A stretch of 64,000 nt of DNA, from NCBI GenBank assembly GCA_964035575.1, contig OZ037836.1, forward strand, positions 1,178,001 to 1,242,000, written 5' to 3'. Source of the DNA: Rhynchopus sp. YZ270_cl-10 (lineage: Eukaryota). The notes under the pieces were generated by a model that was not told the origin of the DNA, ran no database searches, and saw only the letters and a program-made list of their open reading frames with translations. The position numbers were made by a program, and so were the translations under genes. Of this stretch, positions 7,373 to 63,972 are shown in pieces (within the stretch, counting starts at the first letter, position 1; every line of letters starts with the position of its first letter).

Positions 7373-8791
7373 CGCGCGCCCCCCCGCCCCCCCTCCAGAA
7401 AAAACACTGCTTATATAAGGTTAAGGGGATTGGCTGACGACACTGAGGACCTCCTTGGGCCACAGCTGTTGACGAAGTCGAGCATTACCCGGCTGTACAC
7501 GGTCGGCCTGAAATCAGGTCCGAATCTAGGATATGTGAACAAAATAAAAATAGCCAAAAAAGACGAAAGGGGGGAGGGGGCAGGGGGGCGGAGGGAGGGG
7601 AGGAAAAAGAGGGAATTGGTCACTCCAGGTCTACGCCGCGGGCGACAGGAGGCCATGCAACTCAGCGAGAAGATTGGTGGCCATGACGCGGTCCCCTTCC
7701 AGGATGGCACGGCTCGAACCCCAAGAGTGGAAGGCGGACAACGCAGCCGGGGGAGAAAGGAGTGCTACCGTGGATGGGGTGGTACCGCTGGTACCAGGCG
7801 GCGACGGTGGAGGAGTGAGGTCGGGGACGGCAGCTGTGTTGGCTGTGAAGGAGCCTCCCGTCTGCTGGGCCTGGTTCGAAGAAAAGGGGGTGGTGGTGGT
7901 CGGGGCACGTTCGGAGTTGCGGGACGTCCGGCAGGAGGAGAGGGGCTGCTGGACGCGGGGGCACAAGGGCACGGAGGGGAAGCAGACAACGCAAGCCCAC
8001 GACCCACAAGAGAGGCACTCCCAGTGGGTGTCGGCGCCTGAGCAGCAACTTTGGCACGGCTCACGGTCAAGATTATCCGAACCAGAGGACGCAAGCAGAC
8101 ACACTGCCAGAGACCCTCCACCTCGGGGAGGTGCTGCCCTGCCACCAACACACCACGTCGTCATTGTGCGTGTCTCTGTCGCTTCTGGCTTTGCTCGGGG
8201 GATTCGTCTCTGCTTCGTTTCGGACGTGCTTCAACCACAAGCTTACTCAGCTCGCCGTTCCTCACTTCGTTGGACACAACACTGCTGCAGCCGGAAAGGT
8301 AAATGCTCGTCAACGAAGTGCAGCCCTCAGCAAATTCCGTAGTATTATAAGTCCAAATATTCAAACCAATCGACGTCACGTTCCTGAGTGGTGATAAATC
8401 CAGGGTTGTTAAGCTTCTGCAGTTGTAAAGGAAACCTGAGCCAACCTGCGTCACATTGCTGAGTGGTGATAAATCGATGCTGGTTAAGCTCTCGCAGTCG
8501 GAAAGAAAGCTGCTCTCAATCGACGTCACGTTGCTGAGTGGCGACAAATCCAGGGTCGTTAAGCTGCTGCAGCTGTAAAGGAAACATGAGCCAACGTGCG
8601 CCACATTGCTGAGCTGTGATAACTCGACGTTGGTTAAGCTCCTGCAGCCGGAAAGAAAGCTGCGATGAATCCACGTCACTTTCCTGAGTGGGAATAAATC
8701 CAGGGTCGTTAAGCGACTGCATACCGCAAGGAAGCACTCACCAACCTGCGTCACATTGCTCAACCCAGAGAGGTCGACACTTGTCAACGAG

Positions 8792-11257
8792 TTAAACTTG
8801 TTAACGTGACCCACCCCCACAATTAGCCGACCAGCAGCCTAATTATGAGGATGGCACCACGTGTACACCATCGTTATCGAAACACCAGACGCGTCTGATT
8901 CACGTCGTGGTGACCCTTCTTGCAGCAGTTCGCCGGCGAAGCAATCATCGGGCGTCCGTCACGGTTCTTCTTCTTCCTCTCACTGGCCACACAAATATCG
9001 CAAGCTCCTCTGTCGTGTCCTCTGCAGTTGTGGTGCTTGCCACAGCACTGCTTCGCCGTCATCGGTGTCGCTGCCCCCGCACACTGCCCGCACGCAGACA
9101 TACTGTGCTGTTCACACGAGTCTAGTGCCTCATCGCATGCCTCCAAAATGTTCGCATCGCAGTGGTGCATCGCACAACAGTTGTTGATGTTGTTGCGGTT
9201 GAGGGTGCAGTCCTCGCATCGCAACCTACTGTGTGTGACGCACACCTGCATGTTCCCCTGCTTCCTCTGCGCCTTTACCCGGACAGCCGGCGTCTGTCTC
9301 CTCCTCTCGTCTGCACGTATTCTCTGCGCTGCCGCGACCGCGGCAATCGCTGACTCCCTCCGTCTCGTCTCTGCCTGCACCTGTGCCTCTGCCATCTGCT
9401 TCCATTGTTCACCCCTTACGGAGCGTTCGTCGGCAGCAGAGTGAGTCACCGTGCAGTCACCCCATCCCGTTCCCTTCTTCTTCTTCTTCTGTTGCGCCAC
9501 TGTTGCTGCTTGCTTCTCGGTCGCCTTCAGCCGCATGTCACGCAGGTACTGCTCAACCTCTGCCGAATACGTCAGCACAGGTCTCACAGAATACCCCACG
9601 TGGGTTCCGGCCCCCAGCTCCCCCAGATGTCGCACCGAAGTCAACCTAACACCTTTCCACACCGTTCTACCGCCCGCCATCACCTCTGCCTGTCGCAACA
9701 TACTGCCGAAAAATTCAGCTCTTTTCCCCACTGATACCCCCGGCACATCCAACCCCGAGAAGACTTCGAAATCCAACATGAGCTCTATCTGCGTGATGGG
9801 GGGCGTTGTGCCATCAGGCCAACGCAGTGCAGCGAGCCACGTCTTCATCGCCCAGAAAAGGTCTTCCGTCCACTTGTCGCTGTGGATATGTCCACTTTTC
9901 CACAGTACACGCTCAAGCGGGTCGAACGCCTCTAGCTCTGCCTCCTGCGGCGGCTTCCAGCCCCAAGGAAACATCGACATCCCACCCAGCTTCGGCGCGT
10001 TCTTCTTGTCGCAGCGCCCGATTTCCCGATCGTACGCATGGCGCGCAATGATGATTGCCGCCATCATCCCCTGCACACGCTTCACCAGCTTCGCCTTCTC
10101 TTTCGCGCTTAACTCCTGCAAGAAGACCTCGGGCACCAGGCCGTGATTCATGAAGCATGGAGGTGCGTTCATGAGCGTGATCCGGAGCTCGTCGATATCT
10201 TCTCCACGGTGCGAGTCCCACCGCGGGCACCACCACCACGTGTGCACCCTCGTCTCAATCGCCATGTCGCAGTACCTGCACAGCGACGACACGTCTTTTC
10301 CCCATTCCTGCAAGTGCACACCCACCACCGTCGAGCCCGAGAGAGTGCCCCGAATGGTACCTGCCACGTACCTGTCCGTCGAAGCGTCTCTCCACAGCTC
10401 GTTCGTCAGCTGCCGGTCCACGCCGCTCTCGATCCCCTTCATCCCTGTTCTGCGTTCCGCCGTCGCTCGGAATGCTTTCGCGCGAATGCCCACCCGCAGC
10501 TCGTGCAGCCACTTGCCGCTCTCATACTGCTGGATGCTCACCCTCATCCCGGTGTGCGTCGTCCAGCAGTGGAAATCGTCCCATTTCCATCCGTACCGCT
10601 CCAGGTCATCCCACAGCAACTCGATCACCCCCTTCTTTAGCTTCTTCACCGGCACCCGGGGGTTCTCAACGCCAGGATTCTGCTGCCTCAGACGTGCGAG
10701 TTCTGCGATCCTGTCGACGCGCTGCCGGAGCACCTCCGTCTTGCGGTCTCGTACCAGCCTCCATACCTCCTCTGCCTCCCTCTGCAGCTCCTCTTGCGTC
10801 ATCATCCGCAGAAAGGTCCCCATCCTTCGCTGTGCGATCGCCGAGTGAGGATCAATCCCTGCAGGCGACAGCACATGGCACACAATTGCGGAAGAGCGCA
10901 TCTTCCTCCCACGGCCCCACACAGCAACCTCCGCCCCCGCCTTCAGCCCCTGCAATGTCTTCACCGTGAAGGCTGTGACTTCGCACCCATGCAGCGCTGC
11001 CATCATCGGACCCCTGCTGCCAATAAGCGCCTTCTCCGAAAAGGACAGCGGCACATTCGCAACTCTGTGGAAGACTTCCACCGCATTCTTCACACGCTCA
11101 CACGCAATGGGTCCGAAATGGCCGTTCCCAAGCAACATGTCTGCTCCCACCGACTTGAACTCCTTCTTGTCGGGGAAGAAGGCATCCTCCTCCAGCCCAA
11201 ATTTTGTGGTCACCTTTTTGGTGGTGAACCCCACGCACTTCTGCCGCTTCACCTCCA
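8792..11257 (-). mobile_element. 5'-truncated non-LTR retrotransposon (element B)
   Basis: TSD TCGACACTTGTCAACGAG at 8774-8791 and 11258-11275. The ORF is visibly homologous to the post-RT part of element A (LRVGIR..RRTGMKGIESGVD vs LRDGIR..RREDMQGVKDGID; IELMLDFE vs LELALDFE). Confidence 0.9.
8874..11257 (-). CDS. Truncated LINE ORF2 C-terminal region: zf-RVT-like CRYC..H..C finger and triple Cys/His repeat
   Basis: ~790-codon open frame with no RT core motifs; CRYCDMAIETRVHTWWWC; C-terminal Cys/His repeats. Confidence 0.8.
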
Positions 11258-12596
11258 TCGACACTTGTCAACGAGGTGCAGTGTGACAGGAAGCTACCTC
11301 CAATGTGAGTCACAATGGACTCAGCACTGAGATCAAGTCTCGTCAACGAAGTGCGTGCCAAGAACCAATTCGGAATGACAGTCGCAACCTCCGCCTGCAG
11401 AAGCAAACACGCCACCTCAGGATCCTCCACACTCTCCAACGTCTCGGCTGTGATGTCGGTCACACCCAACGCATGAAGCTCTGCAATGGCTTCGTACTTC
11501 TGCGTTTTCGTGAGGATGATTGTGTCACCAGCACTCAGCTGCGTCATGTCCGCTCCTTCTCCCATCGCTTCGCCTCCGAAACTCATGCAAAAGCCGTCTT
11601 CAGGCAACCCCATTGCAGTCGCCACCTTCCGCCGCATCACCCCAAGTGTATCATCCTCACCCAGCTCGACCGTATGCTTCACTCCGTTCAACCCCTTGAT
11701 AGTCAAATCCATATTTGTGTCGCTCTGTATCATAGGTAACGGAGGGTGATGGTGATGTGGAGAAGGTGAGGAGGTGTGGGGGAAATAAACAAGAGTTTCT
11801 TTTGTTGTAGGCCTCGAGCATGGTCATGCACGGATTCGGGTGTTTGCACGATGGCGAAGCAATGGGAGGTACATGTAACTATAGTAACATATAGCATTAC
11901 ATGTCTTGATGGGATTATCCGGAAACACGGGACATAGTTACATTTTCATTTTTCATTAGGAATTCATGTACTTTTTGCAGAGTATAAATATTCCCCTACG
12001 CCGTCTGCTTTAATCGTATGCAACGAAATAAAGGTGGGCAAGAGAGAGGAGCCTAGGGGGAAGTATTCCACCCTTGAGTATCAGGTGTATCGTCACCAAG
12101 CACGTACCGCAGAAAAGTACGTTGTTCCCTTGGCAACTGCGTAGTGCAAGGCGGACTCGAGAAGTCATTTGCAGACAGCACATCTCACGCCTGGATGTCG
12201 CAGCTATGCCGTGTGCAATAAGCTGGCCTGACTCCAAGAATGAAACATTAAAATACAACAATGTCCCTTCTTCCGGATCATCCCCATCAAGATATCAAGA
12301 AGTACCCCAAACACTATCCCCCCTTGTAGAACTTGTGTGGATGTTATCATCAGCTTGTACCCCTTTATTACTCAATCGTACACGATCGATTTATCACATG
12401 ATTTTGTACTATTTGAGGTGCTTGGTGGTGTTGGTGGTTCAACTACCACCAAACACCATGAGGTCTGGTCTGGTGTGGGTAGGGGTCTTTGGTGGGTTAC
12501 TGTCAAGATTATCCGAACCAGAGGACGCAAGCAGACATACTGCCAGAGACCCTCCACCTCGGGGAGGTGCTGCCCTGCCACCAACACACCACGTCG

Positions 12597-13664
12597 TCAT
12601 TGTGCGTGTCTCTGTCGCTTCTGGCTTTGCTCGGGGGATTCGTCTCTGCTTCGTTTCGGACGTGCTTCAACCACAAGCTTCCTCAGCTTGCCGTTCCTCA
12701 CTTCGTTGGACACAACACTGCTGCAGCCTGAAAGGTAAATGCTCGTCAACGAAGTGCAGTGCGCAGCAAAATGCGAAATATTAGAATAAATGTTCAAACG
12801 AATATGCGTCACATTGCTTAGTGGTGATAAATCTAGGGATGCTAAGTTGCTGCAAAACTGAAGGAACCACGCACCAACCTGCGTCACATTGCTGAGTGGT
12901 GATAAGTCGACGTTGGTTAAGCTGCTGCAGCCGCAAAGAAAGCTGTCACCAATCCGCGTCACGTTGCTGAATGGTGCTAAATCCAGGATCGTTAAGCTCT
13001 TGCAGTTCTGAAGGAAGCCCTCACCAACCTGCGTCACATTGCTGAGTGGTGGTAAAAAGATAGTGGTTAAGCTCTCGCAGCCGGAAAGAAAGCTATCATT
13101 AATCGACGTCACATTGCTGAGTGGGGATAAATCCAGGGTCGTTAAGCTGCTGCAGTTCTGAAGGAACCACACACCAACCTGCGTCACATTGCTCAACCCA
13201 GAGATGTCGATACTTGTCAACGAGGTGCAGTTGTACAGGAAGCTGTTTCCAATGCGAGTCACAATGGACTCAGCACTGAGATCAAGTCTCGTCAACGAAG
13301 TGCGTGCCAAGAACCCAATCGGAATGACAGTCGCAACCTCCGCCTGCAGAAGCAAACACGCCACCTCAGGATCCCTCACACTCTTCAACTTCTCGGCTGT
13401 GATGTCGGTCTCACCCAACGCATGAAGCTCTGCAATGGCTTCGTACTTCTGCGACGCCTTCGTGAGGATGATTGTGTCACCAGCACTCAGCTGCGTCATG
13501 TCCGCTCCTTCTCCCATCGCTTCGCCTCCGAAACTCATGCAAAAGCTGTCTTCAGGCAACCCCACTGCAGTCGCCACCTTCTGCCGCATCACCGCAAGTG
13601 TGTCATCCTCACCCAGCTCGACCGTATGCTTCACTCCGTTCAACCCCTTGATAGTCAAATCCAT
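12597..13664 (-). CDS. UBL + 25-aa LRR protein with basic C-terminal NLS-like tail (copy 2, most repeats among copies 1-10)
   Basis: Intact ORF: beta-grasp-like N-terminus, LTTLDLSPLSNVTQVGxxFLxxCxS repeats, RPKRSR-x8-KRQR tail. An upstream in-frame ATG exists at 13685. Confidence 0.9.
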   Translation of the reverse strand: MDLTIKGLNGVKHTVELGEDDTLAVMRQKVATAVGLPEDSFCMSFGGEAMGEGADMTQLSAGDTIILTKASQKYEAIAELHALGETDITAEKLKSVRDPEVACLLLQAEVATVIPIGFLARTSLTRLDLSAESIVTRIGNSFLYNCTSLTSIDISGLSNVTQVGVWFLQNCSSLTTLDLSPLSNVTSINDSFLSGCESLTTIFLPPLSNVTQVGEGFLQNCKSLTILDLAPFSNVTRIGDSFLCGCSSLTNVDLSPLSNVTQVGAWFLQFCSNLASLDLSPLSNVTHIRLNIYSNISHFAAHCTSLTSIYLSGCSSVVSNEVRNGKLRKLVVEARPKRSRDESPEQSQKRQRHAQ

Positions 13665-16837: not shown

Positions 16838-17755
16838 TCATTGTGCGTGTCGACGTCGCTTCTGGCTTTGCTCGGGGGATTCGTCTCTGCTTCGTTTCGG
16901 ACGTGCTTCAACCACAAGCTTACTCAGCTTCTTGTCCTTCCTCACTTCGTTGGACACAACACTGCTGCAGCCGGAAAGGTAAATGCTCGTCAACGAAGTG
17001 CAGCGCGCAGCAAAATGCGTATTCTGAGTAAAAATATTCAGACGAATATGCGTCACATTGCTGAGTGCTGACAAATCCAGGGTCGTTAAGCTGCTGCAGT
17101 TCTGAAGGAAGCTCGCACCAACCTGCGTCACATTGCTGAGTGATGATAAATCGATAGTGGTTAAGCTCTCGCAGCCGTCAAGAAAGCTATCATTAATCGA
17201 CGTCACGTTCCTGAGTGGGGATAAATCCAGGGTCGTTAAGCTCCTGCAGTTCTGAAGGAACCACACACCAACCTGCGTCACATTGCTCAACCCAGAGAGG
17301 TCGACACTTGTCAACGAGGTGCACTCTCCCAGGAAGCAGTCTCCAATGTGAGTCACAATGGACTCAGCACTGAGATCAAGTCTCGTCAACGAAGTGCCTG
17401 ACAAGAAGTTATCCGGAATGACAGTCGCAACCTCCGCCTGCAGAAGAAAACACGCCACCTCAGGATCCCTCACACTCTCCAACTTCTCGGCTGTGATGTC
17501 GGTCACACCCAACGCATGAAGCTCTGCAATGGCTTCGTACTTCTTCGTCTTCGTGAGGATGATTGTGTCACCAGCACTCAGCTGCGTCATGTCCGCTCCT
17601 TCTCCCATCGCTTCGCCTCCGAAACTCATGCAAAAGCTGTCTTCAGGCAACCCCACTGCAGTCGCCACCTTCTGCCGCATCACCACAAGTGTGTCATCCT
17701 CACCCAGCTCGACCGTATGCTTCACTCCGTTCAACCCCTTGATAGTCAAATCCAT
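16838..17755 (-). CDS. UBL-LRR family copy 4
   Basis: Intact ORF, MDLTIKG N-terminus (upstream ATG at 17776). Confidence 0.9.
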   Translation of the reverse strand: MDLTIKGLNGVKHTVELGEDDTLVVMRQKVATAVGLPEDSFCMSFGGEAMGEGADMTQLSAGDTIILTKTKKYEAIAELHALGVTDITAEKLESVRDPEVACFLLQAEVATVIPDNFLSGTSLTRLDLSAESIVTHIGDCFLGECTSLTSVDLSGLSNVTQVGVWFLQNCRSLTTLDLSPLRNVTSINDSFLDGCESLTTIDLSSLSNVTQVGASFLQNCSSLTTLDLSALSNVTHIRLNIFTQNTHFAARCTSLTSIYLSGCSSVVSNEVRKDKKLSKLVVEARPKRSRDESPEQSQKRRRHAQ

Positions 17756-21717: not shown

Positions 21718-22912
21718 GTTACGCTTCTTCTTTTGAAACTTAACAAAAATAAAAAAAATAAAAAAAAGGGGGAGCGTGCTGCCGAAAGAGCTTCTACCCT
21801 TCAGAACGCCAGTTTGACATAATCTGTTGTGAATGAAATGATCAGCTCTTGTGTTGAATTCTGGAGATAAATACTTTTGTGTGTAAGGTGTCTGTGATGT
21901 AGGAGGGGCTAGGGGTCTGGGTGGGGGTAATTCGCGTATTCGAGAAGAAGTGTGGTGGGGGGAGTGAAGGAAAAATAATGAAGTTCTGGGTGGGGATTCT
22001 TTTGCAGCACAGAGTAAAATAACACAATGTGTGGAACGTCTTGCTCAGCACAGCTCTCCTCTCGCACCAAGTAGTAGTCTGTGCCACGGTGAGCAAGACT
22101 GTGCCCCTCTTCTTCTCCGAACCAGAGGACGCAAGCAGACATACTGCCAGAGACCCTCCACCTCGGGGAGGTGCTGCCCTGCCACCAACACACCACGTCG
22201 TCATTGTGCGTGTCTCTGTCGCTTCTGGCTTTGCTCGGGGGATTCGTCTCTGCTTCGTTTCGGACGTGCTTCAACCACAAGCTTCCTCAGCTTGCCGTTC
22301 CTCACTTCGTTAGACACAACACTGCTGCAGCCGGAAAGGTAAATGCTCGTCAACGAAGTGCAGAACGCAGCAAAATACGTAGCTCCAAAACCGCAGCACG
22401 TAGACGTTACGTTGCTGAGTGGCGACAAATCTAGGGTTGTTAAGCTCCTGCAGTTGGAAAGGAACCACGGACCAACCTCCGTCACGTTGCTGAGTGGTGA
22501 TAAATCGATGGTGGTTAAGCTCGTGCAGTCAGAAAGAAAGCTGCGATCAATCTGCGTCACGTTGCTGAATGGTGATAAATCCAGGGTTGTTAAACTCCTG
22601 CAGTACTCAAGGAAGCACATTCCAACCTGCATGACATTGCTCAACCCAGAGAGGTCGATACTTGTCAACGAGGTGCACTCTGCCAGGAAGCTGTCTCCAA
22701 TGCGAGTCACAATGGACTCAGCACTGAGATCAAGTCTCGTCAACGAAGTGCGTCCCAAGAAGCAATTCGGAACGACAGTCGCAACCTCCGCCTGCAGAAG
22801 CAAACACGCCACCTCAGGATCCTCCACACTCTTCAACTTCTCGGCTGTGATGTCGGTCACACCCAACGCATGAAGCTCTGCAATGGCTTCTTGCTTCTTC
22901 GTCTTCGTGAGG

Positions 22913-24967
22913 TAGGGGTCCGTTTTAGGTCTCTGGCAGGCCGGGCCTTCTTTCTGTGGCCTTCCCAACCAAAAGACCCCCAAAAAACACAGGTACCTGC
23001 TGCGTTTAATGGCACTTTACCCCAGTCCCTGGAACAGATCGGCAAGCCGACCAGCCCAGGTATGCATGCCAACACTACTGGGGGTGCACTGTTCGATAGC
23101 ATAAAAGAAAAGTCAAAAAGTCAAAAAGACAAGAAGGTCAAACAAAATAGGTACTTCGAACAGGGCTGACAGGAGGGGATTCTCACCCGAGGTTCGGTGC
23201 CTGTCAGGCTGCGATTAGTGGTTCTGGGTGATTCCCTTCTTCCTAGCCACCGTTACCGCGTTGCCCGCACCGTAAGAGAGTGGGGACGGTTCACGACCGT
23301 TCGTACGCGTCAGCAAAAGTAGGGGTCGGAGTCCAGGCCCGAACCGGAAACATTAACCTCCGTTTTTCGAAACATTAAAAAGTAAAAATGAAAAAGAAAA
23401 ATCAACAGCAAGAGCAGTGTTGCTGTAAAAGAAACAGCAGCACCGTCAGCTAACATGTCCACACAATATGGCAGACGGCCACACAAAATTCCCCTGATTT
23501 GTACAGAGAAAGTTGTAACTTCTTCCTTACAAGTAAGGGAGTGCCGGCAGGGAAGGAGTTACAACAAACAGTGAACAAACTCAAGTACCAGCCTTTCCGC
23601 GTAGCACAGACCCTACATTTGGTAGTTGGTCTGCCCTACTGCCTCATCTGCACCGTAGCTGGACGCCACGACGACAACTCCTTCATCTATCAACGTACCA
23701 AAGCACGTGAAAATAGAACAAAAACAAACAGATTGGAAAAACAACAGAGCATGTACCTGCAGATCCACAGTTGTTTCACGTACAGTGCATACACCCTGAA
23801 AGCTTAACCTCTTCCTTCTAGCACGGACGTTGGTCTGCCCTACTGCCTCTTCTGCACCGTAGCTGAGCCACGGCGACAACTCCTTCATCTATCAACGTAC
23901 CAAAGCACGTGAAAATAGAACAAAAATAAACACAATGGAAAAACAGCAGAGCATGTACCTGCAGATCCACAGTTGTTTCACGTACAGTGCATACACCCTG
24001 AAAGCTTAACCTCTTCCTTCTAGCACAGACGTTGGTCTGCCCTACTGCCTCTTCTGCACCGTAGCTGAGCCACGGCGACAACTCCTTCATCTATCAACGT
24101 ACCAAAGCACGTGAAAATAGAACAAAAATAAACACATTGGAAAAACAGCAGAGCATGTACCTGCAGATCCACAGTTGTTTCACGTACAATGCATACACCC
24201 TGAAAGTTTAACCTCTTCCTTCTAGCACAGACGTTGGTCTGCCCTACTACTTCTTCTGCACCGTAGCTGAATGCCACGGCGACAACTTGTACCCACCTGC
24301 GAATGAATGTTCGCAGATCCCTTCTTCTACTAACGTATAAAAACGTAAAAACAGACCAAAAACTACAACATGCCACACTGAATTAACGACAGAGCACGCA
24401 CCTGCAGATCCACAGATGTTTCACTACGGTGTACACAGCCTGAGGTTAAACACATAACACAAGAATTCTACTACGGCAAAAAGATGAAAACTGAACTGAA
24501 CTGAACAAAACTACAACACATCACACTGAATACACAAGAGCACGTACCTGCTGATCCACAGTTGTTTCACATACAGTGTACGCACCAACAAAGCAACAAA
24601 ACGTTCCCATGCGGTCAAACGACAACACAGGAACAGCAACAATATTCCGTCACCAGTAGAGACACCGGCAACGCTTCCTTCTTGTACCTGGGATCCCCTC
24701 ATCGGCATCAACACACTCCCAGTCACCGCACAGGTAACAGATCCTTGAAACCCCTCGAAGGGGTTTGCGTAGCCTACATAAGCTGGTGATCTGCCCGAAA
24801 TTGACTGTGATGTTGTGTTAATAACCAGGGTCCCCACATCGGCTTGTTCCTCCTCCGGTCCCGAGCGAATCCATCATTGGAGAGGCGGCCGCCCACGCTG
24901 ACTCAGTACCATGCGAACACGGCGTCCAGGGGCCCCACTTGGCGGTTGGTCAGACGTTAATTGCCCC
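22913..24967 (-). mobile_element. Non-coding retroposed element (element C, SINE/SIDE-like)
   Basis: TSD CTTCTTCGTCTTCGTGAGG at 22894-22912 and 24968-24986; no TIR and no credible ORF; HDV-like fold at the minus-strand 5' end. Confidence 0.8.
23625..24290. repeat. 202-bp tandem repeat inside element C (~3.3 copies plus degenerate copies)
   Basis: Direct repeat units; a related solo unit lies at ~51560-51735. Confidence 0.9.
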
Positions 24968-24968
24968 C
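24895..24968 (-). ncRNA. Candidate HDV-like self-cleaving ribozyme at the 5' end of element C
   Basis: P1 GGGGGC/GCCCCU; P2 CUGAC/GUCAG (extendable); short P3 with L3 GCCAAGU; P1.1 CC/GG; P4 GCCGUG-UUCG-CAUGGU; J4/2 ACUGA. P3 is imperfect. Confidence 0.6.
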
Positions 24969-26680
24969 TTCTTCGTCTTCGTGAGGATGATTGTGTCACC
25001 AGCACTCAGCTGCGTCATGTCCGCTCCTTCTCCCATCGCTTCGTCTCTGAAACTCATGCAAAAGCCGTCTTCAGGCAACCCCATTGCAGTCGCCACCTTC
25101 CGCCGCAAGCCCTCCACTGTGTCATCTTCACCCACCTCGACTGTGTGCTGGTTCGTGTCGAAACCCTTGATGTTCAGGTCCATGTCTTTGTTGTGGTTTT
25201 GTGTTCTGATCTCTGTGTGTGGTGGTGGGGTGTGGAGGACAACAAGCCTGCAGTCCTTTTCAAGAACCAGGCCAAAGAAAAACTGTCAGGAGAAGAGCCC
25301 CTCTCCCCGACCCACAACCCCCGACTTCAGATCTCTCACCTCTCCACCCCCTCTCCCTGAACCAGCGCCCTTCACAGACGTTCCCTCCTCACGAAAGCAA
25401 ACCCACCTTCCCCTGCCCCTCTCACGCACCGTTACCTGCCCCGTTCTGCACAAGAAACCCGCACAGCCTCCACGCTGTCTCCACCCACCCCACGCAAGGA
25501 AGAACGCCAAAGGTGCTCTCGTGCTGCAACCACAGACAAGCTGAAGTGCCAGACAAATGCACGAAAGCACCCCACCGCCAGACACAGCTTCCCCTCCCAT
25601 CATCACCACAAACGATGGGTGCACCTCCCACACCCAAGGACAGCCATCCACCAACTAAGACTTCCGCACAAGCACCCCAACCACAGCAAAGCGCATCCTC
25701 CCCCCTGAGTCCCCCCAGTCACACCATCAAGTGAAAGCACGCCATCAGTGCATCAGAGCACACTCGCCTCCGTCATCACACCTCACACCTCTTCGTGCAA
25801 GCTACCAAGAAGACAGTGAAAGACCACGTGGTGTCAACGAGTTCAGAGTGATGAATTACAGAAAAAAAGGGGGGTTGGGCGGGGAGGTACGTTGTAATGA
25901 ATAAGACATGGGTTTTTGTGGGGATTCTTTTGCAGCACAGAGTAACATAATTGTATTTGCTTCTAAACTACTCTCACTAGATAGCACGATTTTGTCTTCA
26001 CAGGATCCTTAAAAGAGAGCAAATAGAAGGAGTACGTGAATATTATTCCAAAAAATTTATTTTTCCTTCCTTCAAAACTTCACACACAACGCTTTTTACA
26101 TCCGAGCATCTAATACTCTAGTCAAGCAAGAGACCACAAGAACTCATCACTAGGCTCCAGCAAGAACTTAATCTCTCACCTAGCTCAACCAAGAACTTCA
26201 CTCCAGCAGGACCCCCATACGAGACGTCACAAGAACTCGTCACCTGGCTCAACCAAGAACTTAATCTCTCACCAGGATCATCTAAGAACTGTACTCACGC
26301 AGGGTTACCAAGTATAAACTCATCAGTGTTCGCGGCACAGAAGAACAAACAAAGTGCAAACGGCACATAGAGAAACGATAAACATGAAACATATCCGAGC
26401 ATCAAATACTCGATCCCCACCAGAGACCATAAGAACTCATCACCCATGAAAGACTAGCCCCCTCGGCACTCAGTCTCACACCAGGCTCAACCAAGAACTT
26501 GACTCAAGCAGGACCACCAGGTACAAATTCATTAACACTCATGACACAGCTCAACGACTGTGTACTGACCAAGCAGGTTAGCCAACAAGGCATTAAAATT
26601 TTTGAAGAAGAAAGCAGGGAGTGGAGGGAGGGAAAGCTTTTTGAATAAAAAATGAACGAAGCACAAAAACAAGCGCGTGT

Positions 26681-31061: not shown

Positions 31062-31976
31062 TCATTGTGCGCGTCTCCGTCGCTTCTGGATTTGCTCGGG
31101 CGATTCGTCTCTGCTTCGTTTCGGACGTGCTTCAACCACAAGCTTCCTCAGCTTCTTGTCCTTCCTCACTTCGTTGGACACAACACTGCTGCAGCCGGAA
31201 AGGTAAATGCTCGTCAACGAAGTGCAGAAAGGAGCAAAGTCTGCAATATCTCCAAAACCGCTATCAATCTGCGTCACCTTGCTTAGTGGTGACAAATCCA
31301 GGGTCGTTAAGCTGCTGCAGTTGTAAAGGAAGCTCCCACCCACCTGCGTCACGTTCCTGAGTGGAGATAAATCGATGTCGGTTAAGCTCTCGCAGTAGGC
31401 AAGAAAGGCCTCACCAACATTCGTCACGTTGCTGAATGGTGACAACTCCAGGGTCGTTAAGCTGCTGCAGCTAGAAAGGAAGCCCACACCAACCTGCGTC
31501 ACTTTGCTCAACCCAGAGAGGTTGATACTTGTCAACGAGGTGCAGTTACACAGGAACCTGTCTCCAATGTGAGTCACAATGGACTCAGCACTGAGATCAA
31601 GTCTCGTCAACGAAGTACCTGACAAGAAGTAATTCGGAACGACAGTCGCAACCTCCGCCTGCAGAAACAAACACGCCACCTCAGGATCCTTCACACTCTT
31701 CAACTTCTCGGCTGTGATGTCGGTCACACCCAACGCATGAAGCTCTGCAATGGCTTGTTGCTTCTGCGTCTTCGTGAGGATGATTGTGTCACCAGCACTC
31801 AGCTGCGTCATGTCCGCTCCTTCTCCCATCGGTTCGTCTCCGAAACTCATGCAAAAGCTGTCTTCAGGCAACCCCATTGCAGTCGCCACCTTCCGCCGCA
31901 AGCCCTCCACTGTGTCATCTTCACCCACCTCGACTGTGTGCTGATTCGCTCTGAAATCCTCAAAGTGCACGTCCAT
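31062..31976 (-). CDS. UBL-LRR family copy 6 (304 aa)
   Basis: Intact ORF, MDVHFED N-terminus. Confidence 0.9.
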   Translation of the reverse strand: MDVHFEDFRANQHTVEVGEDDTVEGLRRKVATAMGLPEDSFCMSFGDEPMGEGADMTQLSAGDTIILTKTQKQQAIAELHALGVTDITAEKLKSVKDPEVACLFLQAEVATVVPNYFLSGTSLTRLDLSAESIVTHIGDRFLCNCTSLTSINLSGLSKVTQVGVGFLSSCSSLTTLELSPFSNVTNVGEAFLAYCESLTDIDLSPLRNVTQVGGSFLYNCSSLTTLDLSPLSKVTQIDSGFGDIADFAPFCTSLTSIYLSGCSSVVSNEVRKDKKLRKLVVEARPKRSRDESPEQIQKRRRRAQ

Positions 31977-33416: not shown

Positions 33417-33478
33417 ACCCGTGCCATACTGTGCCAAACCCTGCCATACCATTTCTTTTCAATGGCCAGCTGTACTGT

Positions 33479-34451: not shown

Positions 34452-34473
34452 AATGGCTAATGGCTAATGGCTA

Positions 34474-42116: not shown

Positions 42117-43098
42117 CTACAGAGGGTGCTGTCCTAGCTTGTCCTCTTTCGTTGTCTCGCCCACACTAAGCTTCTCAACGGCCGTGCAGGCGAGCTTTGT
42201 GGCGTTCACGTTGTTACTGCTGTCGATGTGCACCAACGTGATGCTTCGGGTCGCTCTCAGCTTGTCAAGCTCACCCCGCGCCTCTTTCTGGAGGTGGGCG
42301 ACTGCCGCGTATGGTCTGCAGTGCTCGTTCACCTGGTCAACCACGGTTCTACTGGATCCGTAGATGTTCAGTGGTGTGGTGTCTGTGACGCTCTTCAGGT
42401 ATTCGAGGCACATCAGCAGTCCTTTATACTCCGCGACGTTCAGGGGTGTGTCCGCCAGGCGACTACTGGCTGTCCACCGCACCTCGCCGTCTTTCTCGAG
42501 GCGTGCTCCAGCGCCCGATCCCTGGCAAGTGTTTTTCTTCACCCTCGCCCCCGGCTGCCTCACGTTGCAGTATCCGCCGAAGAAGATGCGAGTGTGTCCG
42601 GTGGGTTTCTTAGGTTTGCGTCGATCCTGCTTCTGCTGCTTCTGCTCAGCAGCCAAACGGATGTGCTTCGCAATTCTGTCTGCTCTCTCCTGTTTGCAGT
42701 CCTCTTCTAGGGGTGGGAGCTCTGTGTTCGTCCAGGATTTGTTTCCGTTGCAGAGGGTTGGCAGGGACCGGATCGTCTTGAGCACCTCAGCTGGTTCGGT
42801 GAGGATGGGTCGTCTCGTGATCGCTAGGGTTCCCCACTTGATGCCTAGGTCTAATGGGGCGAACACTTTGCTCCTGGGGTAGATGGTGCCCGAGAAGAGG
42901 TACGCGTTTGCTGCCACTATCTTTGCCTTAGCCATCCAGTTGCTGAACCAGGTGATTTTGTCGGTGATCATGGAGCTCTCTCGGGAATTGGGTTCCTCTG
43001 TGGTGAGCTTTGCTCCTGTGTGCGCTTCGAAGTCCAGCGCCAGCTCCAGGTGCGAGACGTGCTGTGATTTCCCATTGGACACCGTCGGCCACTTTAGG
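42117..43098 (-). CDS. Frameshifted C-terminal part of element A ORF2 with degenerate RNase H-like domain
   Basis: WLE/LKWP aligns with WLAALRWP of element B, implying a frameshift near 43098. RIFFGG..GSGAGA..NVAEYKGL..IYGSSRTVVDQV..NVNATKLA follows the RNase HI (RVT_3-type) pattern. Confidence 0.8.
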
Positions 43099-46000: not shown

Positions 46001-47556
46001 AGCACACGCTGCCTGAACGTCATATTCTCAAATGTCGCGTCCAGGGGGATGTGTGAAGGTATTCCGGCCGTCCCCGTTTTGCACCCTGCCAGCGCAAGCA
46101 CCGCAATCTGGTTGGCCAGGATGATGTCAATTCGTGAGCACACACTTTTGGCTTCAGACTTTGTGCTCTTACCGATGTGGGTGTGCTCTGGCTCTTGGTT
46201 GGCCCAGCCCGCGGCTCGTTCGGCACAGTCCGTCCATCGTTCTGAGCTGATGGCTAGGGATATTGCTTCGCTTGAGCTGGGTTCTGGGTGGCTGTTGCAA
46301 TCCCCGAGGATAATCGCTGGTACGTCCCCTATCTCTGCTTCTGCAAATACATCCGATAGGAAGCTCTCGCGCTCTTGCTTTGCTTGCGGGGAGTTGCCGA
46401 CTTTCGCGTATATCACGAATAGGTGTAGAAAATGGTTCCCTGCCCCATGTGCCACCTTTGCGTGCAGGTAACGCTTTGAGTCCCAGAGTCTCTTTGCTCG
46501 TTCAGTATCTCTCCTGACCACACTTGCTGGTATGCCTCGTTTCACCATTAGGCCCACCCCCTTGTGTTCTCCGTAGCTCTGTTGTATTGCGTTTGGAAGT
46601 AACTTTACTGGGCACCCCCAGAGACCTGTCCAGCCTTGTTCATACAGCGTTCGGGAAGCTTGGGCCTGTTTCTTCTGTGTGAGCCGGGTCTCCTGCAGTG
46701 CGACTATGTCGTTGTCCCAACTCCACACCTCCTCCTGGTGAGCATTCATTGAGGTGATGTTGGCAGTACGTATGGACAGGTTTGGAGTGGCCCGGGCAGC
46801 GCGGCGTCGCTTTCTCTCCGTCTTGGTACGTTTCCGTGAGCGAGACACTGCGATATTCGTGTCCAGGTTCTCCAGCGTGACACAGCGGTTGCCCTCTGCC
46901 TGCGTCGTTGCAATCAGCGACAACAGCCCCTCGGTTGCTTTGAGGCGGTCGAAGTGCTCGGGCCTGTACGTGAGCACAACTGGGTTCGATGTAGGTGGTC
47001 CGCCGACGTGGCTAAACCGTTTCGCTCTGGCATCCAGTACCCAGATGGCCCTGTCGAGTATGCTTGCCGCAGTCTGTAGCTCACGTTCTCCACCGTACGT
47101 TCCTTGCATTCTCATTTTGGCTAGGTGTTGCGTGTAGGTGGAAGGTTCGTTTGCCTCAGGAGAGTAGCTGTCAGCATAGAGGTCACTGTCGTCGTTTTGC
47201 AGTACGTCCACCACCCGTTGTCGCAGTGAGTTCGTTGTCCACCCCTCGCTCTGCTCAGCTATGGCAGAGAATAGGCAGTCCCCGTCTGGCGCTACTGCTA
47301 TCCTTGTAGAGTTGATACTGCGGGCTGTTGCGTCCAACCACTCCTTGTGGTCGGTGATGGCCCTCAGTGGGTTCACGGGATTGTCGTTGTTTTTGGGGTA
47401 GGCGCTCCTACCTATCCCCGGTTCTATGTGCGATTCTAAGTACGTATCTAATCTAGTGGGGGGGGTGAGGTGGGGGAGTGGAGGGGTTGGGTCTAGAATC
47501 AAACGAACAGGAGATCGTTGATCTCGTCCGCAATCGCCTTCGACTCCTTCTTCCAC
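43099..47556 (-). CDS. Element A ORF2: OTU protease - APE endonuclease - reverse transcriptase - Zn finger
   Basis: OTU: VAPDGDCLF (Cys 47275-47277), YGGEREL, EHFD. APE: TANI, ALQET, LGDCN, SRIDII, PSH. RT: RPIS, HGFR, LDIKKCFD, GILQGCALS, YADD (~44490). Zn finger CEHC..H..C. Confidence 0.95.
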
Positions 47557-49030
47557 CGCTCCATCTCCTCCGTCCCCTCCGTCACCTTTCCCGCCCCCTT
47601 TCCCATCTTTCCGCCGTCCTTCGACTTGCCCTTTTTGCGCTGGGGGGGGCCCGACCCGAAGATGTCGTCCATTGTGCTTCCCTTTCCCGCGCCGGACGAC
47701 TTTGACCCCTTTTGCTTGTTGGGGGTGGTTGGTGGCGACAGTGTCTCGGTCGCGGTTTTCGGCTTTACCGTCTCGTTGGCCTTCACATCACAGTCCTTCG
47801 TGTCCTCCGTGGTGCTTTGTTGTTGTTGGAGCGGAGAGGGTGGGTGAGCCGGTTCCGCGTTGGTGGTAGGCTGGAGTAGCCTGAGGAGGTGGGCCAGGTG
47901 CGCGTCCGTCGCCTCCTGTCGTGCCTCCGCTGCACACTGCCGAGCCACCACCGTCGCCAGCGCCGCGTTCATCTCCTCCTGAGCTTTGTTGTTACTGATA
48001 ACTGCAGAGAGGATTTGCTCCCGCTGAGCTTCCGCGTTTGTCGCCAGTTCTTCCGCTCTGGTGGCGTGGCTGTCCATCTTGGACAGTTGGAGCACTTGAC
48101 GCTCTAGGAGCGCTTCAATGCCCTTGCCCATTTGTAGAAGAGGGGTGGTGATAGAGGTGAGGTCGGCCGGTGTTGCGTTGTGGTTCTGATGCTGTTGGGG
48201 AAGTTGGTGCTGAACTACGCGCTGCATCCATGCCAGCTCCAGCTTCTGTCCCTGTTCGAACAGCTTTTTGCCTCTGTCCGCGCCGTACTCTGCTACAAAT
48301 TCTTGGCTGGTGTATTTTACCTTCCTGTTTCTCTCTGTGGGGTCAGGTACCCGTGTAGGAAGCTGTTGGTGGGTGTCTGCTGTGGTGGTGACGGTGCTGG
48401 TATCTCTTGCTACTGCAGGGAGGATTGACACCACTAGGCTCTGCCACTTGACGCTGCTGTGCGGTGGCTGCGTCTCTGCGCGCACCACGAGGGTCTTTTC
48501 CCCCGTTCTGCCCTTGCTGAGCAGCGTCACCACCCGCGCCCCCTCCCACTTCATCGCCTTCAGTGCCGCGATGCAGTCCTGCTTCGTTGCGGGGGGAGGA
48601 ACCGGCCTGAGGTCGAAGAGCTGGGTGGTGGTGTGCGTTGTGGTGCTGTCGGGTATCTCGAACGTGAATGTGGGGGCGTCATCCATCGCCTCCGGGGCAC
48701 CACCGCTGCTACCTCCCCTTAGCCTACCCAGCTCCCACACGTTGCAGTGCGTCCTGCACATCCGGAGCGACTCCTTGTCGCTCATGTCCCTCCCGTTGAT
48801 GGTAAGGCGGTGCACGTCCCTGCGTCCACCTGTCTTCGCGCGCACTGCCGCCTTCAGGTCAGCCACCGAGTCCGTGTCGCTGACGTCCACTGTCACTGTC
48901 TTTCCAGTCAGCGTTCGCACAAAAATCTGCCTTTTTACCTCTTCATTTTCTTCTTCTTTTTGTTCCGAGTCTTTGCCGCAGTCCTCTGCGTTGCCCGGGG
49001 TCACCTCGTGGAGGTGCTCGGTAAAAACCC
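47499..49030 (-). CDS. Element A ORF1: N-terminal ubiquitin domain (48711-48929, ends RLRGG), coiled coil, basic tail
   Basis: QIFVRTLTGKTVTVDV...DLKAAV...RL...GRLRGG aligns with ubiquitin; Q/A/E-rich heptad region; the frame is open to the element 5' end and in frame with the host UBL. Confidence 0.88.
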
Positions 49031-49031
49031 C
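48965..49031 (-). ncRNA. Candidate HDV-like self-cleaving ribozyme at the 5' end of element A
   Basis: GGGGUU-UUUA-CCGAGC-ACC-UCCACGA-GGU-GACCCC-GGGCAA-CGCAG-AGGA-CUGCG-GCAAA-GACUCGG. P1, P2, P3/L3, P1.1, P4 and the J4/2 C (48975) are in HDV order. Confidence 0.78.
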
Positions 49032-50035
49032 ACTCTCCAACTTCTCGGCTGTGATGTCTGTCACACCCAACGCATGAAGCTCTGCAATGGCTTCGTACTT
49101 CTGCGACTTCTTCGTGAGGATGATTGTGTCACCAGCACTCAGCTGCGTCATGTCCGCTCCTTCTCCCATCGGTTCGCCTCCGAAACTCATGCAAAAGCCG
49201 TCTTCAGGCAACCCCATTGCAGTCGCCACCTTCCGCCGCATCACCGCAAGTGTATCATCCTCACCCAGCTCGACCGTATGCTTCACTCCGTTCAACCCCT
49301 TGATAGTCAAATCCATATTTGTGTCGCTCTGTATCATAGGTAACGGAGGGTGATGGTGATGTGGAGAAGGTGAGGAGGTGTGGGGGAAATAAACAAGAGT
49401 TTCTTTTTTTTTAGGCCTCGAGCATGGTCATGCACGGATTCGGGTGTTTGCACGATGGCGAAGCAATGGGAGGTACATGTAACTATAGCTACATATAGCA
49501 TTACATGTCTTGATGGGATTATCCGGAAAGACGGGACATAGTTACATTTTCATTTTTCATTAGGAATTCATGTACTTTTTGCAGAGTATAAATATTCCCC
49601 TACGCCGTCTGCTTTAATCGTATGCAACGAAATAAAGGTGGGCAAGAGAGAGGAGCCTAGGGGGAAGTGTTCCACTCTTGAGTATCAGGTGTGTCGGCAG
49701 AAGGTCTGATTCAAAGAAGACTTGGTGAAGCAGGGTGGGGAACAATTCTGCAATTCGTTGTTGAGAACTGCGAGTCGAAATAACATTGTTCTCGGGGTGT
49801 AGTGGTGGGGGTCATAACTAAACAGCACCAAACTTCAGGCACAATTTGGTGCTAGTGCATGTAACATTATGCTAATATTACATGCTACATGTAACATTAC
49901 AAGGTCTGACTGGTGTGGGTAGGGGCTTTGGTGGGTTACGGTCAAGATTATCCGAACCAGAGGACGCAAGCAGACATACTGCCAGAGACCCTCCACCTCG
50001 GGGAGGTGCTGCCCTGCCACCAACACACCACGTCG

Positions 50036-50875
50036 TCATTGTGCGTGTCTCCGTCGCTTCTGGCTTTGCTCGGGGGATTCGTCTCTGCTTCGTTTCGGAA
50101 GTGCTTCAACCACAAGCTTACTCAGCTTCTTGTCGTTCCTCACTTCGTTGGACACCACACTGCTGCAGCCGGAAAGGTAAATGCTCGTCAACGAAGTGCA
50201 GTTCGCAGCAAAGTTCGTAGTATTATTGCAAGTCAAACCAATCGACGTCACATTGCTGAGTGGTGATAAATCCAGGGTGGTTAAGCTGCTGGACTTCGCA
50301 AGGAACCACGCGCCAACCTGTGTAACGTTGCTGAGTGGTGACACATCCAGCGTCGTTAAGCTGCTGCAGTTGTAAAGGAAGCCCGCACCGACCCGCGTCA
50401 CATTGATCAACCCAGAGAGGTCGATACTTGTCAACGAGGTGCAGTGGTGTAGGAAGCAACCTGCAATGCGAGTCACAATGGACTCAGCACTGAGATCAAG
50501 TCTCGTCAACGAAGTGCGTGACAAGAAGTAACTCGGAATGACAGTCGCAACCTCCGCCTGTAGAAGCAAACACGCCACCTCAGGATCTCTCACACTCTTC
50601 AACTTCTCGGCTGTGATGTCGGTCACACCCAACGCATGAAGCTCTGCAATGGCTTCTTGCTTCTGCGTCTTCGTGAGGATGATTGTGTCACCAGCACTCA
50701 GCTGCGTCATGTCCGCTCCTTCTCCCATCGGTTCGTCTCCGAAACTCATGCAAAAGCTGTCTTCAGGCAACCCCATTGCAGTCGCCACCTTCCGCCGCAA
50801 GCCCTCCACTGTGTCATCTTCACCCACCTCGACTGTGTGCTGATTCGCTCTGAAATCCTCGAAGTGCACGTCCAT
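50036..50875 (-). CDS. UBL-LRR family copy 10 (279 aa, one LRR fewer)
   Basis: Intact; ATG of MDVHFED at 50875. Confidence 0.9.
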   Translation of the reverse strand: MDVHFEDFRANQHTVEVGEDDTVEGLRRKVATAMGLPEDSFCMSFGDEPMGEGADMTQLSAGDTIILTKTQKQEAIAELHALGVTDITAEKLKSVRDPEVACLLLQAEVATVIPSYFLSRTSLTRLDLSAESIVTRIAGCFLHHCTSLTSIDLSGLINVTRVGAGFLYNCSSLTTLDVSPLSNVTQVGAWFLAKSSSLTTLDLSPLSNVTSIGLTCNNTTNFAANCTSLTSIYLSGCSSVVSNEVRNDKKLSKLVVEALPKRSRDESPEQSQKRRRHAQ

Positions 50876-57345: not shown

Positions 57346-57452
57346 TACCGTAATCGTACTAATGTTCGTAAAAAAAAAAGGTCGAACTTCCAGAAAAATC
57401 TGAAAAGGTCAACAAACATATTTACGGTCGATATTTTTTTACGATTACGGTA
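57346..57452. mobile_element. Tiny TA-flanked MITE-like element
   Basis: TACCGTAATCGTA ... TACGATTACGGTA inverted termini. Confidence 0.45.
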
Positions 57453-62751: not shown

Positions 62752-63972
62752 TCAGCCCTTTTTAACCCTCTTGCCAGGACGCACAACAGCGGTGTCCCTC
62801 TTCACTCGTGGCGTCTGTTCCTCCTCACCTTCATCCTCGCTGCACGCAGGCGAACCCTTGCTCTCTGCGAACCCTGCTTCCCTTTCCTCAGAGGGCTCTG
62901 TGTCTGCATGAAGACGCTTCCGCCTGCACCCTTCTTTCTGCACGGTTGCGGGGTCGGGCACGTTGTCAGTCTCGCATATCAGACCGTGAATCACATTTGT
63001 CGGCAAACCCACTTCTTTCGCAAGCAACCTCCTCACAACCAGAGCGTCCTTGCTCAACCCTGAGGCATCGATTCTTGTTAACTCTGAGCAGGACTCGAAC
63101 AAATACTCCCCAATACTCCTGACCCCGCTCAACGCAGACAGGCCATCGACGACTTGCAAGCGTAAGCAATGCCCAAAGAAGTACTTCCCGATGGTAACGA
63201 CACTCCTCAGCCCCGAAAGACAAACTCTCTTCAACGACGAGCAGTTGTAAAGAAATCCGTCAACTATTTTGGTGACATTGCTCAACCCCGAAAGGTCCAC
63301 GGACGTCAAATGGCTGCACTTGTTAAGAAAATCCCCCGCAATCACAGTCAGGCAGCGAAACACAGAGAGGTCAACCGTTCGCAATGCAGAAGAACCAAGA
63401 AAGTATTGGTCTATCATAGTGACACTGCCGAACCCCGACAGGTTGATGCTCTCCAATCGTTCGGCGAAGGGGATGAAGCGAACTCCTATCACAGTCACAT
63501 TGCACAACCCTGAAAGGTCAACCTCTGTCAACTGTGGGCAATTGTACAGGAAGTTTGCCCCTATTTCGGTGACAACCGACACAGCACTAAGGTCAAGTCG
63601 CGTTAACGCACTGCGTTCCAAGAAGTGAAAAGGAATCACAGTCGCAACCTCCGCCTCCAAAAGCAAACGCGCAACGTCCGGATTCTTCACAGTCGCCAAC
63701 CTCTGTTTTGTCAGGTCTGTCTCGCCCAATGCGTGAAGTGCTGCAATGGCAGCAGACTTCGTTGTCCTCATGAGCATAATCGTGTCCCCAGCACTCAGCT
63801 CCTTGATGCCCTCCTCGTCACGCAGCACCTCCCCTCTGAAAGTCATCTGAAAGCTGTCTTCCTGCAACCCTGCTGCAGACGCCACCTTCAGACGCAGGTG
63901 TCCAAGTGCATCATCCACACCCACCTCCACCACATGTTCCTTCTCGTCAAAATCCTTGATCGTGATATCCAT
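62752..63972 (-). CDS. Divergent UBL-LRR paralogue (copy 11, 406 aa)
   Basis: MDITIKDFDEKEHVVEV UBL; conserved AIAALHALG..VARLLLEAEVATVIP linker; 25-aa LRRs; acidic/basic tail. Confidence 0.9.
   Translation of the reverse strand: MDITIKDFDEKEHVVEVGVDDALGHLRLKVASAAGLQEDSFQMTFRGEVLRDEEGIKELSAGDTIMLMRTTKSAAIAALHALGETDLTKQRLATVKNPDVARLLLEAEVATVIPFHFLERSALTRLDLSAVSVVTEIGANFLYNCPQLTEVDLSGLCNVTVIGVRFIPFAERLESINLSGFGSVTMIDQYFLGSSALRTVDLSVFRCLTVIAGDFLNKCSHLTSVDLSGLSNVTKIVDGFLYNCSSLKRVCLSGLRSVVTIGKYFFGHCLRLQVVDGLSALSGVRSIGEYLFESCSELTRIDASGLSKDALVVRRLLAKEVGLPTNVIHGLICETDNVPDPATVQKEGCRRKRLHADTEPSEEREAGFAESKGSPACSEDEGEEEQTPRVKRDTAVVRPGKRVKKG

Follow-up and report, generated by a model that had tools for sequence, protein, structure and literature searches.

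Positive selection at seven repeat positions in an array of ubiquitin-like, leucine-rich-repeat genes of Rhynchopus: a candidate repertoire of intracellular binders

What kind of protein keeps its two ends nearly constant from copy to copy and varies at a handful of positions in the repeats between them? The question is raised by a 64,000-nucleotide stretch of Rhynchopus sp. YZ270_cl-10 (assembly GCA_964035575.1, contig OZ037836.1, positions 1,178,001 to 1,242,000; the window hereafter), in which genes joining an N-terminal ubiquitin-like domain (UBL) to leucine-rich repeats (LRRs) and a basic tail recur along one strand. We found that seven of the 25 repeat positions (14, 16-18, 21, 22 and 24) are under positive selection, and the sequences make it highly probable that the array is a diversifying repertoire of binding proteins. 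We further consider, tentatively and with slightly more doubt than belief, that this germline UBL/LRR repertoire binds fast-evolving foreign proteins inside the cell and passes them to the degradation machinery. A positively selected, non-secreted LRR family of several hundred members is a concrete candidate for the little-understood recognition of intracellular invaders by protists; diplonemids, from which its named UBL-LRR relatives come, are described in the available literature as among the most abundant marine eukaryotes.

Using tblastn with one copy together with six-frame translation, we find 11 homologous loci at 8161-63972, all intronless and on the minus strand, which bears out the 11 same-strand paralogues of the original prediction. 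That prediction had missed, however, that three of them (g01, g05 and g09) are disrupted by insertions, leaving eight intact. The order of UBL, helical linker, LRR and basic tail is common to the array. The intact copies encode 355, 304, 305, 304, 305, 305, 279 and 406 amino acids (aa), and the summed halves of the split loci give 355 (g01), 302 (g05) and 304 (g09) codons.

8161..8791, minus strand: g01, 3' half, from LRR2 to the tail and with the right-hand copy of an 18-bp target duplication
11258..11712, minus strand: g01, 5' half (UBL, linker, LRR1)
12597..13664, minus strand: g02, intact, 355 aa
15014..15928, minus strand: g03, intact, 304 aa, the modelled copy (UBL ~1-69, three helices 71-106, LRR solenoid ~112-282, basic tail)
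16838..17755, minus strand: g04, intact, 305 aa, a mosaic with its UBL nearest g02 and its LRR1 and third repeat nearest g03
22201..22912, minus strand: g05, 3' half (linker to tail)
24968..25183, minus strand: g05, 5' half (UBL)
31062..31976, minus strand: g06, intact, 304 aa
37740..38657, minus strand: g07, intact, 305 aa
39341..40258, minus strand: g08, intact, 305 aa
41017..41665, minus strand: g09, 3' half
49031..49316, minus strand: g09, 5' half, with the UBL and a portion of the linker, sharing its reading frame with insertion C ORF1
50036..50875, minus strand: g10, intact, 279 aa
62752..63972, minus strand: g11, intact, 406 aa, a divergent subfamily with a longer acidic/basic tail

Upon examining the domains, Pfam places ubiquitin (PF00240) at residues 3-71 (E 6e-6 to 5e-8) and BspA-type LRR_5 repeats in all four intact copies scanned, at 37.8-104 bits against a curated cut-off of 27.7. 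The AlphaFold model of the 304-aa copy g03 (pLDDT 91, pTM 0.77, 74-sequence alignment) opens with a beta-grasp domain; three helices follow at 71-106, then the solenoid, and at the end a tail helix of low confidence (293-303, pLDDT ~63). Solenoid strands occupy repeat positions 3-5, with a second strand at 14-15 in some of the repeats. Residues 1-72 superpose on ubiquitin with a root mean square deviation (rmsd) of 1.4-1.9 A over ~70 residues and score as ubiquitin-like at Z 11-12 (1.4-1.7 A). With the absence of a diglycine after the last UBL strand in all 132 members, these matches support the predicted N-terminal, non-cleavable beta-grasp domain. The top six VIA matches of the solenoid are all TpLRR/BspA-type structures, among them 6mlx (TpLRR; Z 15.3, rmsd 3.8, 174 aligned), 4h09 (Z 14.7) and 4fs7 (Z 14.1). 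The canonical BspA/TpLRR repeat has 23 residues. Here, of 730 intervals in the 120 best database relatives (118 of them with an anchor), 615 measure 25 aa, and the repeats are a 25-aa length variant of that class. The 25-aa unit of the original prediction thus stands, but the steps in repeat number, said to be exact, vary by +/- 1-3 aa because the UBL/linker junction and the last-repeat loop (9-12 aa) differ in length. A hydropathy scan of the eight intact copies, made with no dedicated predictor, found no N-terminal hydrophobic core (best 8-residue mean <=0.8), in line with the predicted lack of a signal peptide or transmembrane segment; the sole hydrophobic 19-mer is linker helix 3, which belongs to the fold. 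The C-termini of the eight intact copies have no terminal Cys or lipid anchor, and the window copies scanned have no Pfam match to F-box, BTB or U-box at E 0.1.

Next, we tabulated variability by repeat position over 615 regular repeats from the 120 best relatives, with each protein's first repeat left out per position. Entropy reaches 2.9-3.7 bits at positions 14, 17, 18, 21, 22 and 24 and 2.1 at position 16, compared with 0.2-0.6 bits at F19, L20 and C23 and 0.8-2.2 at the x positions 2, 3, 5 and 7 of the concave strand. All seven xxFLxx motifs quoted in support of the original prediction are present, and 680 of the 758 xx..xx combinations are distinct. The last-repeat loop varies in both sequence and length. 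The likeness to variable receptors drawn in the original prediction needs amending: variation lies on the second strand and the loop that follows it, whereas the concave strand is conserved (ratio of nonsynonymous to synonymous differences per site, pN/pS, 0.20; interval 0.09-0.50). In a solenoid, residues at equivalent repeat positions lie one above another; positions 14-24, together with the loop of the last repeat, would therefore make up one lengthwise stripe beside the conserved concave strand, a presumptive binding surface. A BspA-type solenoid can evidently diversify a face other than its concave strand, which bears on repeat-protein evolution and on binder design.

To measure selection, we took the variable sites from the database proteins, six of the 120 being window copies, and tested them at four positionally anchored repeats in the DNA of ten close copies. 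By counting, pN is 0.37 and pS 0.26 at the 26 variable codons, a ratio of 1.45 (bootstrap 1.06-2.09); the remaining 58 codons have a ratio of 0.56. Fitted on a star tree, a codon model yields a nonsynonymous-to-synonymous rate ratio (dN/dS, omega) of 3.95 at the variable and 0.46 at the framework codons with a shared silent rate (likelihood-ratio test statistic, LRT, 66), and 2.05 at the variable codons when their local rate is left free (p 0.002). In simulations at omega=1 with a random genealogy for each repeat and no multi-base changes, none of 120 reached the observed LRT of 9.8 and one of 120 reached omega 2. Counting, codon model and null simulations thus agree with the predicted dN/dS above one, and neither a ratio of one or less at these sites nor an N-terminus of another fold, both of which would have spoken against the original prediction, was found. 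The interleaved codons for F19, L20 and C23 have a silent divergence of 21/457 (4.6%), compared with 7.9% at positions 1-13; because it is not raised there, the pattern is codon-specific. Regional hypermutation, considered as a separate explanation, is ruled out by the same low values.

The pattern recurs in a pair of proteins that had no part in the choice of sites. Between g11 and the relative P0162, both of 406 aa, differences fall at 33 of the 49 variable sites and at 17 of the 146 remaining LRR sites (P 2e-13), with 3 of 70 UBL and 4 of 101 tail positions differing outside the LRR. Across 369 pairs whose linkers are less than 6% different, 59% of variable and 15% of framework positions differ. 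Segment exchange between copies is indicated by nearest neighbours that switch along the gene, the UBL of g04 grouping with g02 and its LRR1 with g03. We read the array as one in which diversifying selection acts together with gene conversion and the gain and loss of repeats.

We also examined how widely the architecture occurs. Searching with the full protein gave 868 matches among 3259 candidates, unrelated LRR proteins included; with the UBL and linker alone, restricted to proteins of 167-532 aa in 90% clusters, 316 of 437 candidates matched at E 1e-12 or better, so the large family that had been predicted exists. Among 20 distant relatives looked up, those with a named source are from Diplonema japonicum (two), D. 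ambulator (one), Flectonema neradi (two), the kinetoplastid Papus (two) and Holosporales (one). Run against 130 sequences, a profile of the family UBL picks out the N-terminus of each of the two D. japonicum proteins (E 1e-7 and 4e-6) and of no other named relative, and the D. ambulator protein has a weak Pfam ubiquitin match (E 0.023). All UBL-LRR relatives with a named source derive from diplonemid transcriptomes, so the architecture is transcribed in relatives, and the host of the array is itself very probably a diplonemid; two transcriptome-derived relatives end in CaaX-like motifs. The same repeat is found fused to a B-box (Pfam, 3/54 scanned) and also occurs in bacteria and viruses; the Holosporales protein combines the repeat type with a weak F-box-like match, and a viral model annotated 'putative E3 ubiquitin ligase' also matches the fold, though weakly (rank 41, E 6e-3). 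Six longer relatives (P0174, P0177, P0187, P0200, P0254 and P0267) carry a Cys/His-rich N-terminus, with a B-box in three, before the UBL/linker-LRR unit, a TRIM-like arrangement. Another 17 of 147 representatives (e.g. P0123 and P0131) are 900-1330 aa long and share the 25-aa repeat behind an N-terminal KYxKY motif; we assume a resemblance to giant-virus proteins, which a scan of viral contigs with P0131 did not confirm. The N-terminus of P0246, used as a query, matched itself only. No description of a UBL-BspA-NLS family (NLS, nuclear localisation signal) was found in a literature search that reached few subscription papers. The main text of the D. papillatum genome paper, in the portion available, has no mention of LRR, BspA or ubiquitin; its supplements list a few LRR orthogroups in the rows available, and further rows could mention the family.

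The tails are more uniform among the close copies than across the family. Among the seven intact close copies, mean identity is 93.8% in the 39-aa linker, 92.4% in the last 30 aa and 82.6% in the UBL, of which the array holds three N-terminal types. The near-invariant linker and tail of the original prediction are borne out for the close copies; copy 11 (g11) is divergent with a longer and different tail, and the 151 family tails divide into 86 that are NLS-like, 10 with Cys at -4 and 55 others, shortened copies included. A tail pattern of KR, a spacer of ~11 residues and KRxR occurs in 81 of 132 members; we take it to fit a bipartite NLS, and on this feature the array proteins are probably nuclear. 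The three-helix linker, considered as a UBA domain, gave no Pfam or PDB profile match and can be assigned to no family, the best Z being 4.2 on a model of pLDDT 66 only. Position 8 of the UBL is Phe or Leu, and the equivalent of Val70 is Thr (register set from the strand).

How might such proteins work? We propose that the positively selected stripe binds fast-changing foreign proteins inside the cell, probably in the nucleus, to which the bipartite basic tail would direct it as an NLS; that the targets may be proteins of viruses, endosymbionts or transposons; that the UBL would dock on a partner in the ubiquitin system by a non-canonical surface; and that the conserved UBL and helical linker would thereby hand bound proteins to the host's protein-degradation machinery. 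A role in defence would follow by inference. Taken singly, we lean slightly towards a foreign target, whereas coupling to degradation is a tentative suggestion that we doubt somewhat more than we credit. If the UBL does route targets to the proteasome, the family would be a natural programmable degrader scaffold.

Several observations weigh against this proposal. The Leu8-Ile44-Val70 hydrophobic patch is the usual surface by which shuttle UBLs of the Rad23/Dsk2 type dock on proteasome receptors. In the family, Ser stands at the Ile44 position in 83% of 132 members (ungapped alignment to ubiquitin), Arg42 is replaced by Cys and Lys48 by Glu, and the mean net charge of the domain is -9.4; because of the Ser and the acidity, the canonical docking entertained in the original prediction is weakened, and the sequences leave a weak case for it. 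Constraint on the UBL is modest (pN/pS 0.66, interval 0.37-1.25) and on the linker unmeasurable (1.55, wide interval), so the conservation of both may stem from gene conversion. In about a dozen relatives the tail stops short of a second basic cluster, and three of the 11 copies are broken. The case for selection has softer points too: at the four xxFLxx codons of the first three repeats omega is 8.3 with a shared rate and a marginal 1.87 with their own rate (p 0.068); among 81 variant alleles, 37 are two or three bases away from the modal codon, and multi-base changes can inflate omega; the deficit of synonymous variant alleles is marginal (6/81 against 10.3 expected, P 0.07); and third-position divergence at the variable codons (0.31) is close to that at first and second positions (0.37/0.36).

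These points bear differently on the other explanations. The silent rate is raised at the variable codons (multiplier 2.6) and the strict tests are marginal, which, with the disrupted copies here and recurrent insertions in at least 13 relatives, would suit a near-neutral, conversion-driven array in which exposed sites drift, frameworks are homogenised and the locus is mainly a niche for mobile elements. We consider this improbable: omega stays above one even with a free local rate, the neutral mosaic simulation fails to reproduce the data, variation alternates codon by codon with silent-invariant neighbours, the concave positions are under purifying selection, and no stop occurs among the 81 variant alleles against 2.8 expected (P 0.05). 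The altered UBL speaks more to the proteins acting as diversifying intracellular binders by sequestration, decoy or signalling, the UBL being a structural or non-proteasomal module. The evidence of selection applies equally to such binders, the lost Ile44 patch and acidic UBL favour them, and the exchange of NLS-like tails for tails with Cys at -4 fits several compartments over one nuclear proteasome route. We nevertheless judge this the less likely course, if a serious one, given that the UBL remains N-terminal across the family and in the D. japonicum relatives that the profile detects, and that the midnolin UBL, in the published account available, shows that a receptor other than the usual ones can be used.

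Diversification might also be driven from within, by self/non-self, toxin-antidote or incompatibility loci acting on host proteins and not by pathogens. The predicted nuclear tail and rapid turnover are compatible with internal conflict, and a young nematode F-box adaptor is described, in the text available, as killing hybrids through the degradation of a host enzyme; but hundreds of copies and 680 stripe variants exceed what a single host target would need, and a Pfam scan of 65 of the 83 other open reading frames (ORFs) of the window found no family and no partner gene, so that we hold it to be unlikely. Least credible, and by a wide measure improbable, is that these are surface adhesins or receptors like the BspA proteins of Trichomonas and Entamoeba. 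The repeat class is the same, some relatives have the CaaX-like ending, and Entamoeba BspA proteins are reported, in the sections available, to get to the membrane with no signal peptide, perhaps through prenylation; the window copies, however, lack a signal peptide and a transmembrane segment, have no Cys at the C-terminus and close with a bipartite basic motif. A bolder version of the degradation proposal would have hundreds of midnolin-like adaptors, each bearing its own LRR stripe, seize proteins of viruses, symbionts or transposons within the nucleus and bring them to the proteasome with no need of ubiquitination, while site-preferring retroelements, one of them with a ubiquitin-like domain and an OTU protease of its own, would parasitise the array and disable it. 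We regard it as rather unlikely; if true, it would amount to an antibody-like intracellular immune system in a free-living protist.

The comparison with midnolin rests on analogy only. Midnolin has, as far as its available description goes, the order of UBL, substrate-binding domain and C-terminal basic helix or NLS, which the array proteins would match with their predicted tail helix and NLS-like pattern, and it shares a non-cleavable UBL; its UBL binds Rpn11 and its NLS helix Rpn1, so that a non-canonical docking route for the array proteins, with this domain order, is conceivable. In contrast to midnolin, the array has an LRR solenoid in place of the Catch domain and hundreds of diversified copies, and the midnolin UBL matches no better than other UBLs (Z 10.0, rank 49). 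In the manner of its evolution, the array may be likened to the nematode F-box and MATH-BTB families and the chlamydial F-box/U-box-LRR proteins (NEX1), for which the available accounts describe a conserved N-terminal ubiquitin-system module with variable repeats, large expansion, birth and death, and a proposed role in immunity or host interaction. Clustered birth-and-death expansion and positive selection on the binding domain, as in F-box/BTB adaptor repertoires, are found in the array, whereas its module is a non-cleavable UBL with no known link to cullin ligases.

BspA/TpLRR expansions are documented in the available literature for Trichomonas vaginalis (911 genes) and Entamoeba histolytica (116). 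With these the array shares Pfam LRR_5 repeats, the TpLRR fold, hundreds of paralogues and variation in repeat number; it differs in its 25-aa repeat with an LDLS strand, its N-terminal UBL, an NLS-like tail in place of a transmembrane segment or CaaX, predicted intracellular location and a likely free-living lineage. The word 'ubiquitin' is absent from the main text, as available, of the Trichomonas BspA paper. ESM Atlas clusters joining a UBL to DUF285 likewise link a ubiquitin-like domain to a bacterial-type surface repeat, albeit of another repeat family, and at scores of 0.82-0.84, below 0.9, are leads only.

In the LRRs of variable lymphocyte receptors (VLRs) and plant nucleotide-binding LRR receptors (NLRs), exposed positions are under positive selection, repeat number varies and so does a loop close to the C-terminal cap; such receptors vary on the concave beta-strand. 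The array resembles them as an LRR repertoire with positively selected, presumably exposed positions, variable repeat number and such a loop, but its concave strand is conserved, it has no NB-ARC/NACHT domain or secretion signal, and the contigs of this window give no sign of somatic assembly. Lacking an F-box, a surface signal, a Catch domain and concave-face variation, the array proteins do not belong with the F-box adaptors, the BspA surface proteins, midnolin or the VLR/NLR-type receptors. We consider it a variant of known expanded adaptor/BspA repertoires in a UBL-BspA-NLS combination that was not found described in the literature searched.

Finally, we examined the insertions, by which birth and death act on the array.

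8792..11257, minus strand: insertion A, 2466 bp, a 5'-truncated element resembling a long interspersed nuclear element (LINE), at position 5 of g01 LRR2, with an 18-bp duplication
22913..24967, minus strand: insertion B, 2055 bp, containing tandem repeats of 202 bp and flanked by a 19-bp target duplication, where the UBL and linker of g05 meet
41666..49030, minus strand: insertion C, a 7365-bp non-long-terminal-repeat (non-LTR) retrotransposon in g09, with a 20-bp duplication
48929-48711, minus strand: insertion C ORF1, a ubiquitin-like domain ending RLRGG
42931-47787, minus strand: insertion C ORF2, with OTU, APE endonuclease, reverse transcriptase and zinc finger
42120-43175, minus strand, different frame: insertion C RNase H-like ORF

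Introns were considered as the cause of the three gaps and ruled out, since 18-20 bp duplications flank each and two encode retroelement proteins. The ORF of insertion A at 8877-11267 is similar to the C-terminal part of insertion C ORF2 (E 3e-23), and three ORFs scanned in insertion B matched no Pfam family. Runs X1, X2, X3 and X4 gave depth in 30 of 30 window bins, spacers too, as expected of DNA. A contig of run X2, which may be the source sample, crosses the g01 junction at 11258 with no differences, which argues against an assembly artefact there. In run X6, loose ends that make up a small share correspond to the two ends of insertion B at the UBL/linker junction, and at 11258 they show a different, G-rich end (both compared by eye).

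The sites of insertion appear, from protein read-through, to recur in relatives. Ten relatives (P0098, P0106, P0118, P0275, P0276, P0279, P0280, P0281, P0284 and P0285), 74-92% mutually identical, are interrupted at position 5 of a repeat, anywhere from repeat 3 to repeat 11 and in different subfamilies, and continue into a single foreign sequence in either of two frames; g01 is broken at that repeat position too. Three more (P0115, P0228 and P0272) carry an insertion at the UBL/linker junction, as g05 does at 24968, and P0272 retains a short in-frame insertion with a duplicated flank. This pattern suggests that site-preferring elements use the array as a niche, by analogy with the retrotransposon hot spot (RHS) genes of trypanosomes. 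The latter are, in the available descriptions, also a euglenozoan multigene family, largely nuclear, many of whose copies are broken by retroelements at a recurring site; the array family differs in having no RHS domain match (Pfam), at least two recurring sites and different elements. Recurrent insertion is no evidence that transposons are the proteins' targets.

Insertion C has features of its own. Its OTU domain opens ORF2 with a catalytic-type DGDC motif and a downstream His, and may form a self-processing pair with the RLRGG-ending UBL. No Met precedes the ORF1 UBL within the element, and the OTU starts upstream of the first Met of ORF2. At 47502-49316 (minus strand), the g09 5' half and ORF1 form a chimeric ORF of 605 aa with two ubiquitin-like domains. 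A literature search for OTU in non-LTR elements turned up OTU only in DNA transposons.

Regarding the remainder of the window, an Rfam scan gave no matches. A 190-codon ORF at 18240-18809 (minus strand) with several hydrophobic segments and a weak DUF6640 match (E 0.039) is possibly a real membrane-protein gene within the array, and a 631-codon ORF at 20152-22044 (minus strand) has no Pfam match, part of it recurring inverted near 36.9-37.2 kb (36620-37354, plus strand). Long near-perfect microsatellites with 5-, 7- and 9-bp units, each 0.3-1 kb, lie between genes (2729-3384, 32600-33417, 33478-33774, 34022-34474, 51994-52633 and 61169-62157). A dispersed 1.2-1.3 kb repeat is present in two copies, 98% identical (26680-28029 and 35090-36328). 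Additionally, CTGCAG is conserved ~60-65 nt before the ATG of g05-g08 and g10, where it may mark a putative trans-splice acceptor.

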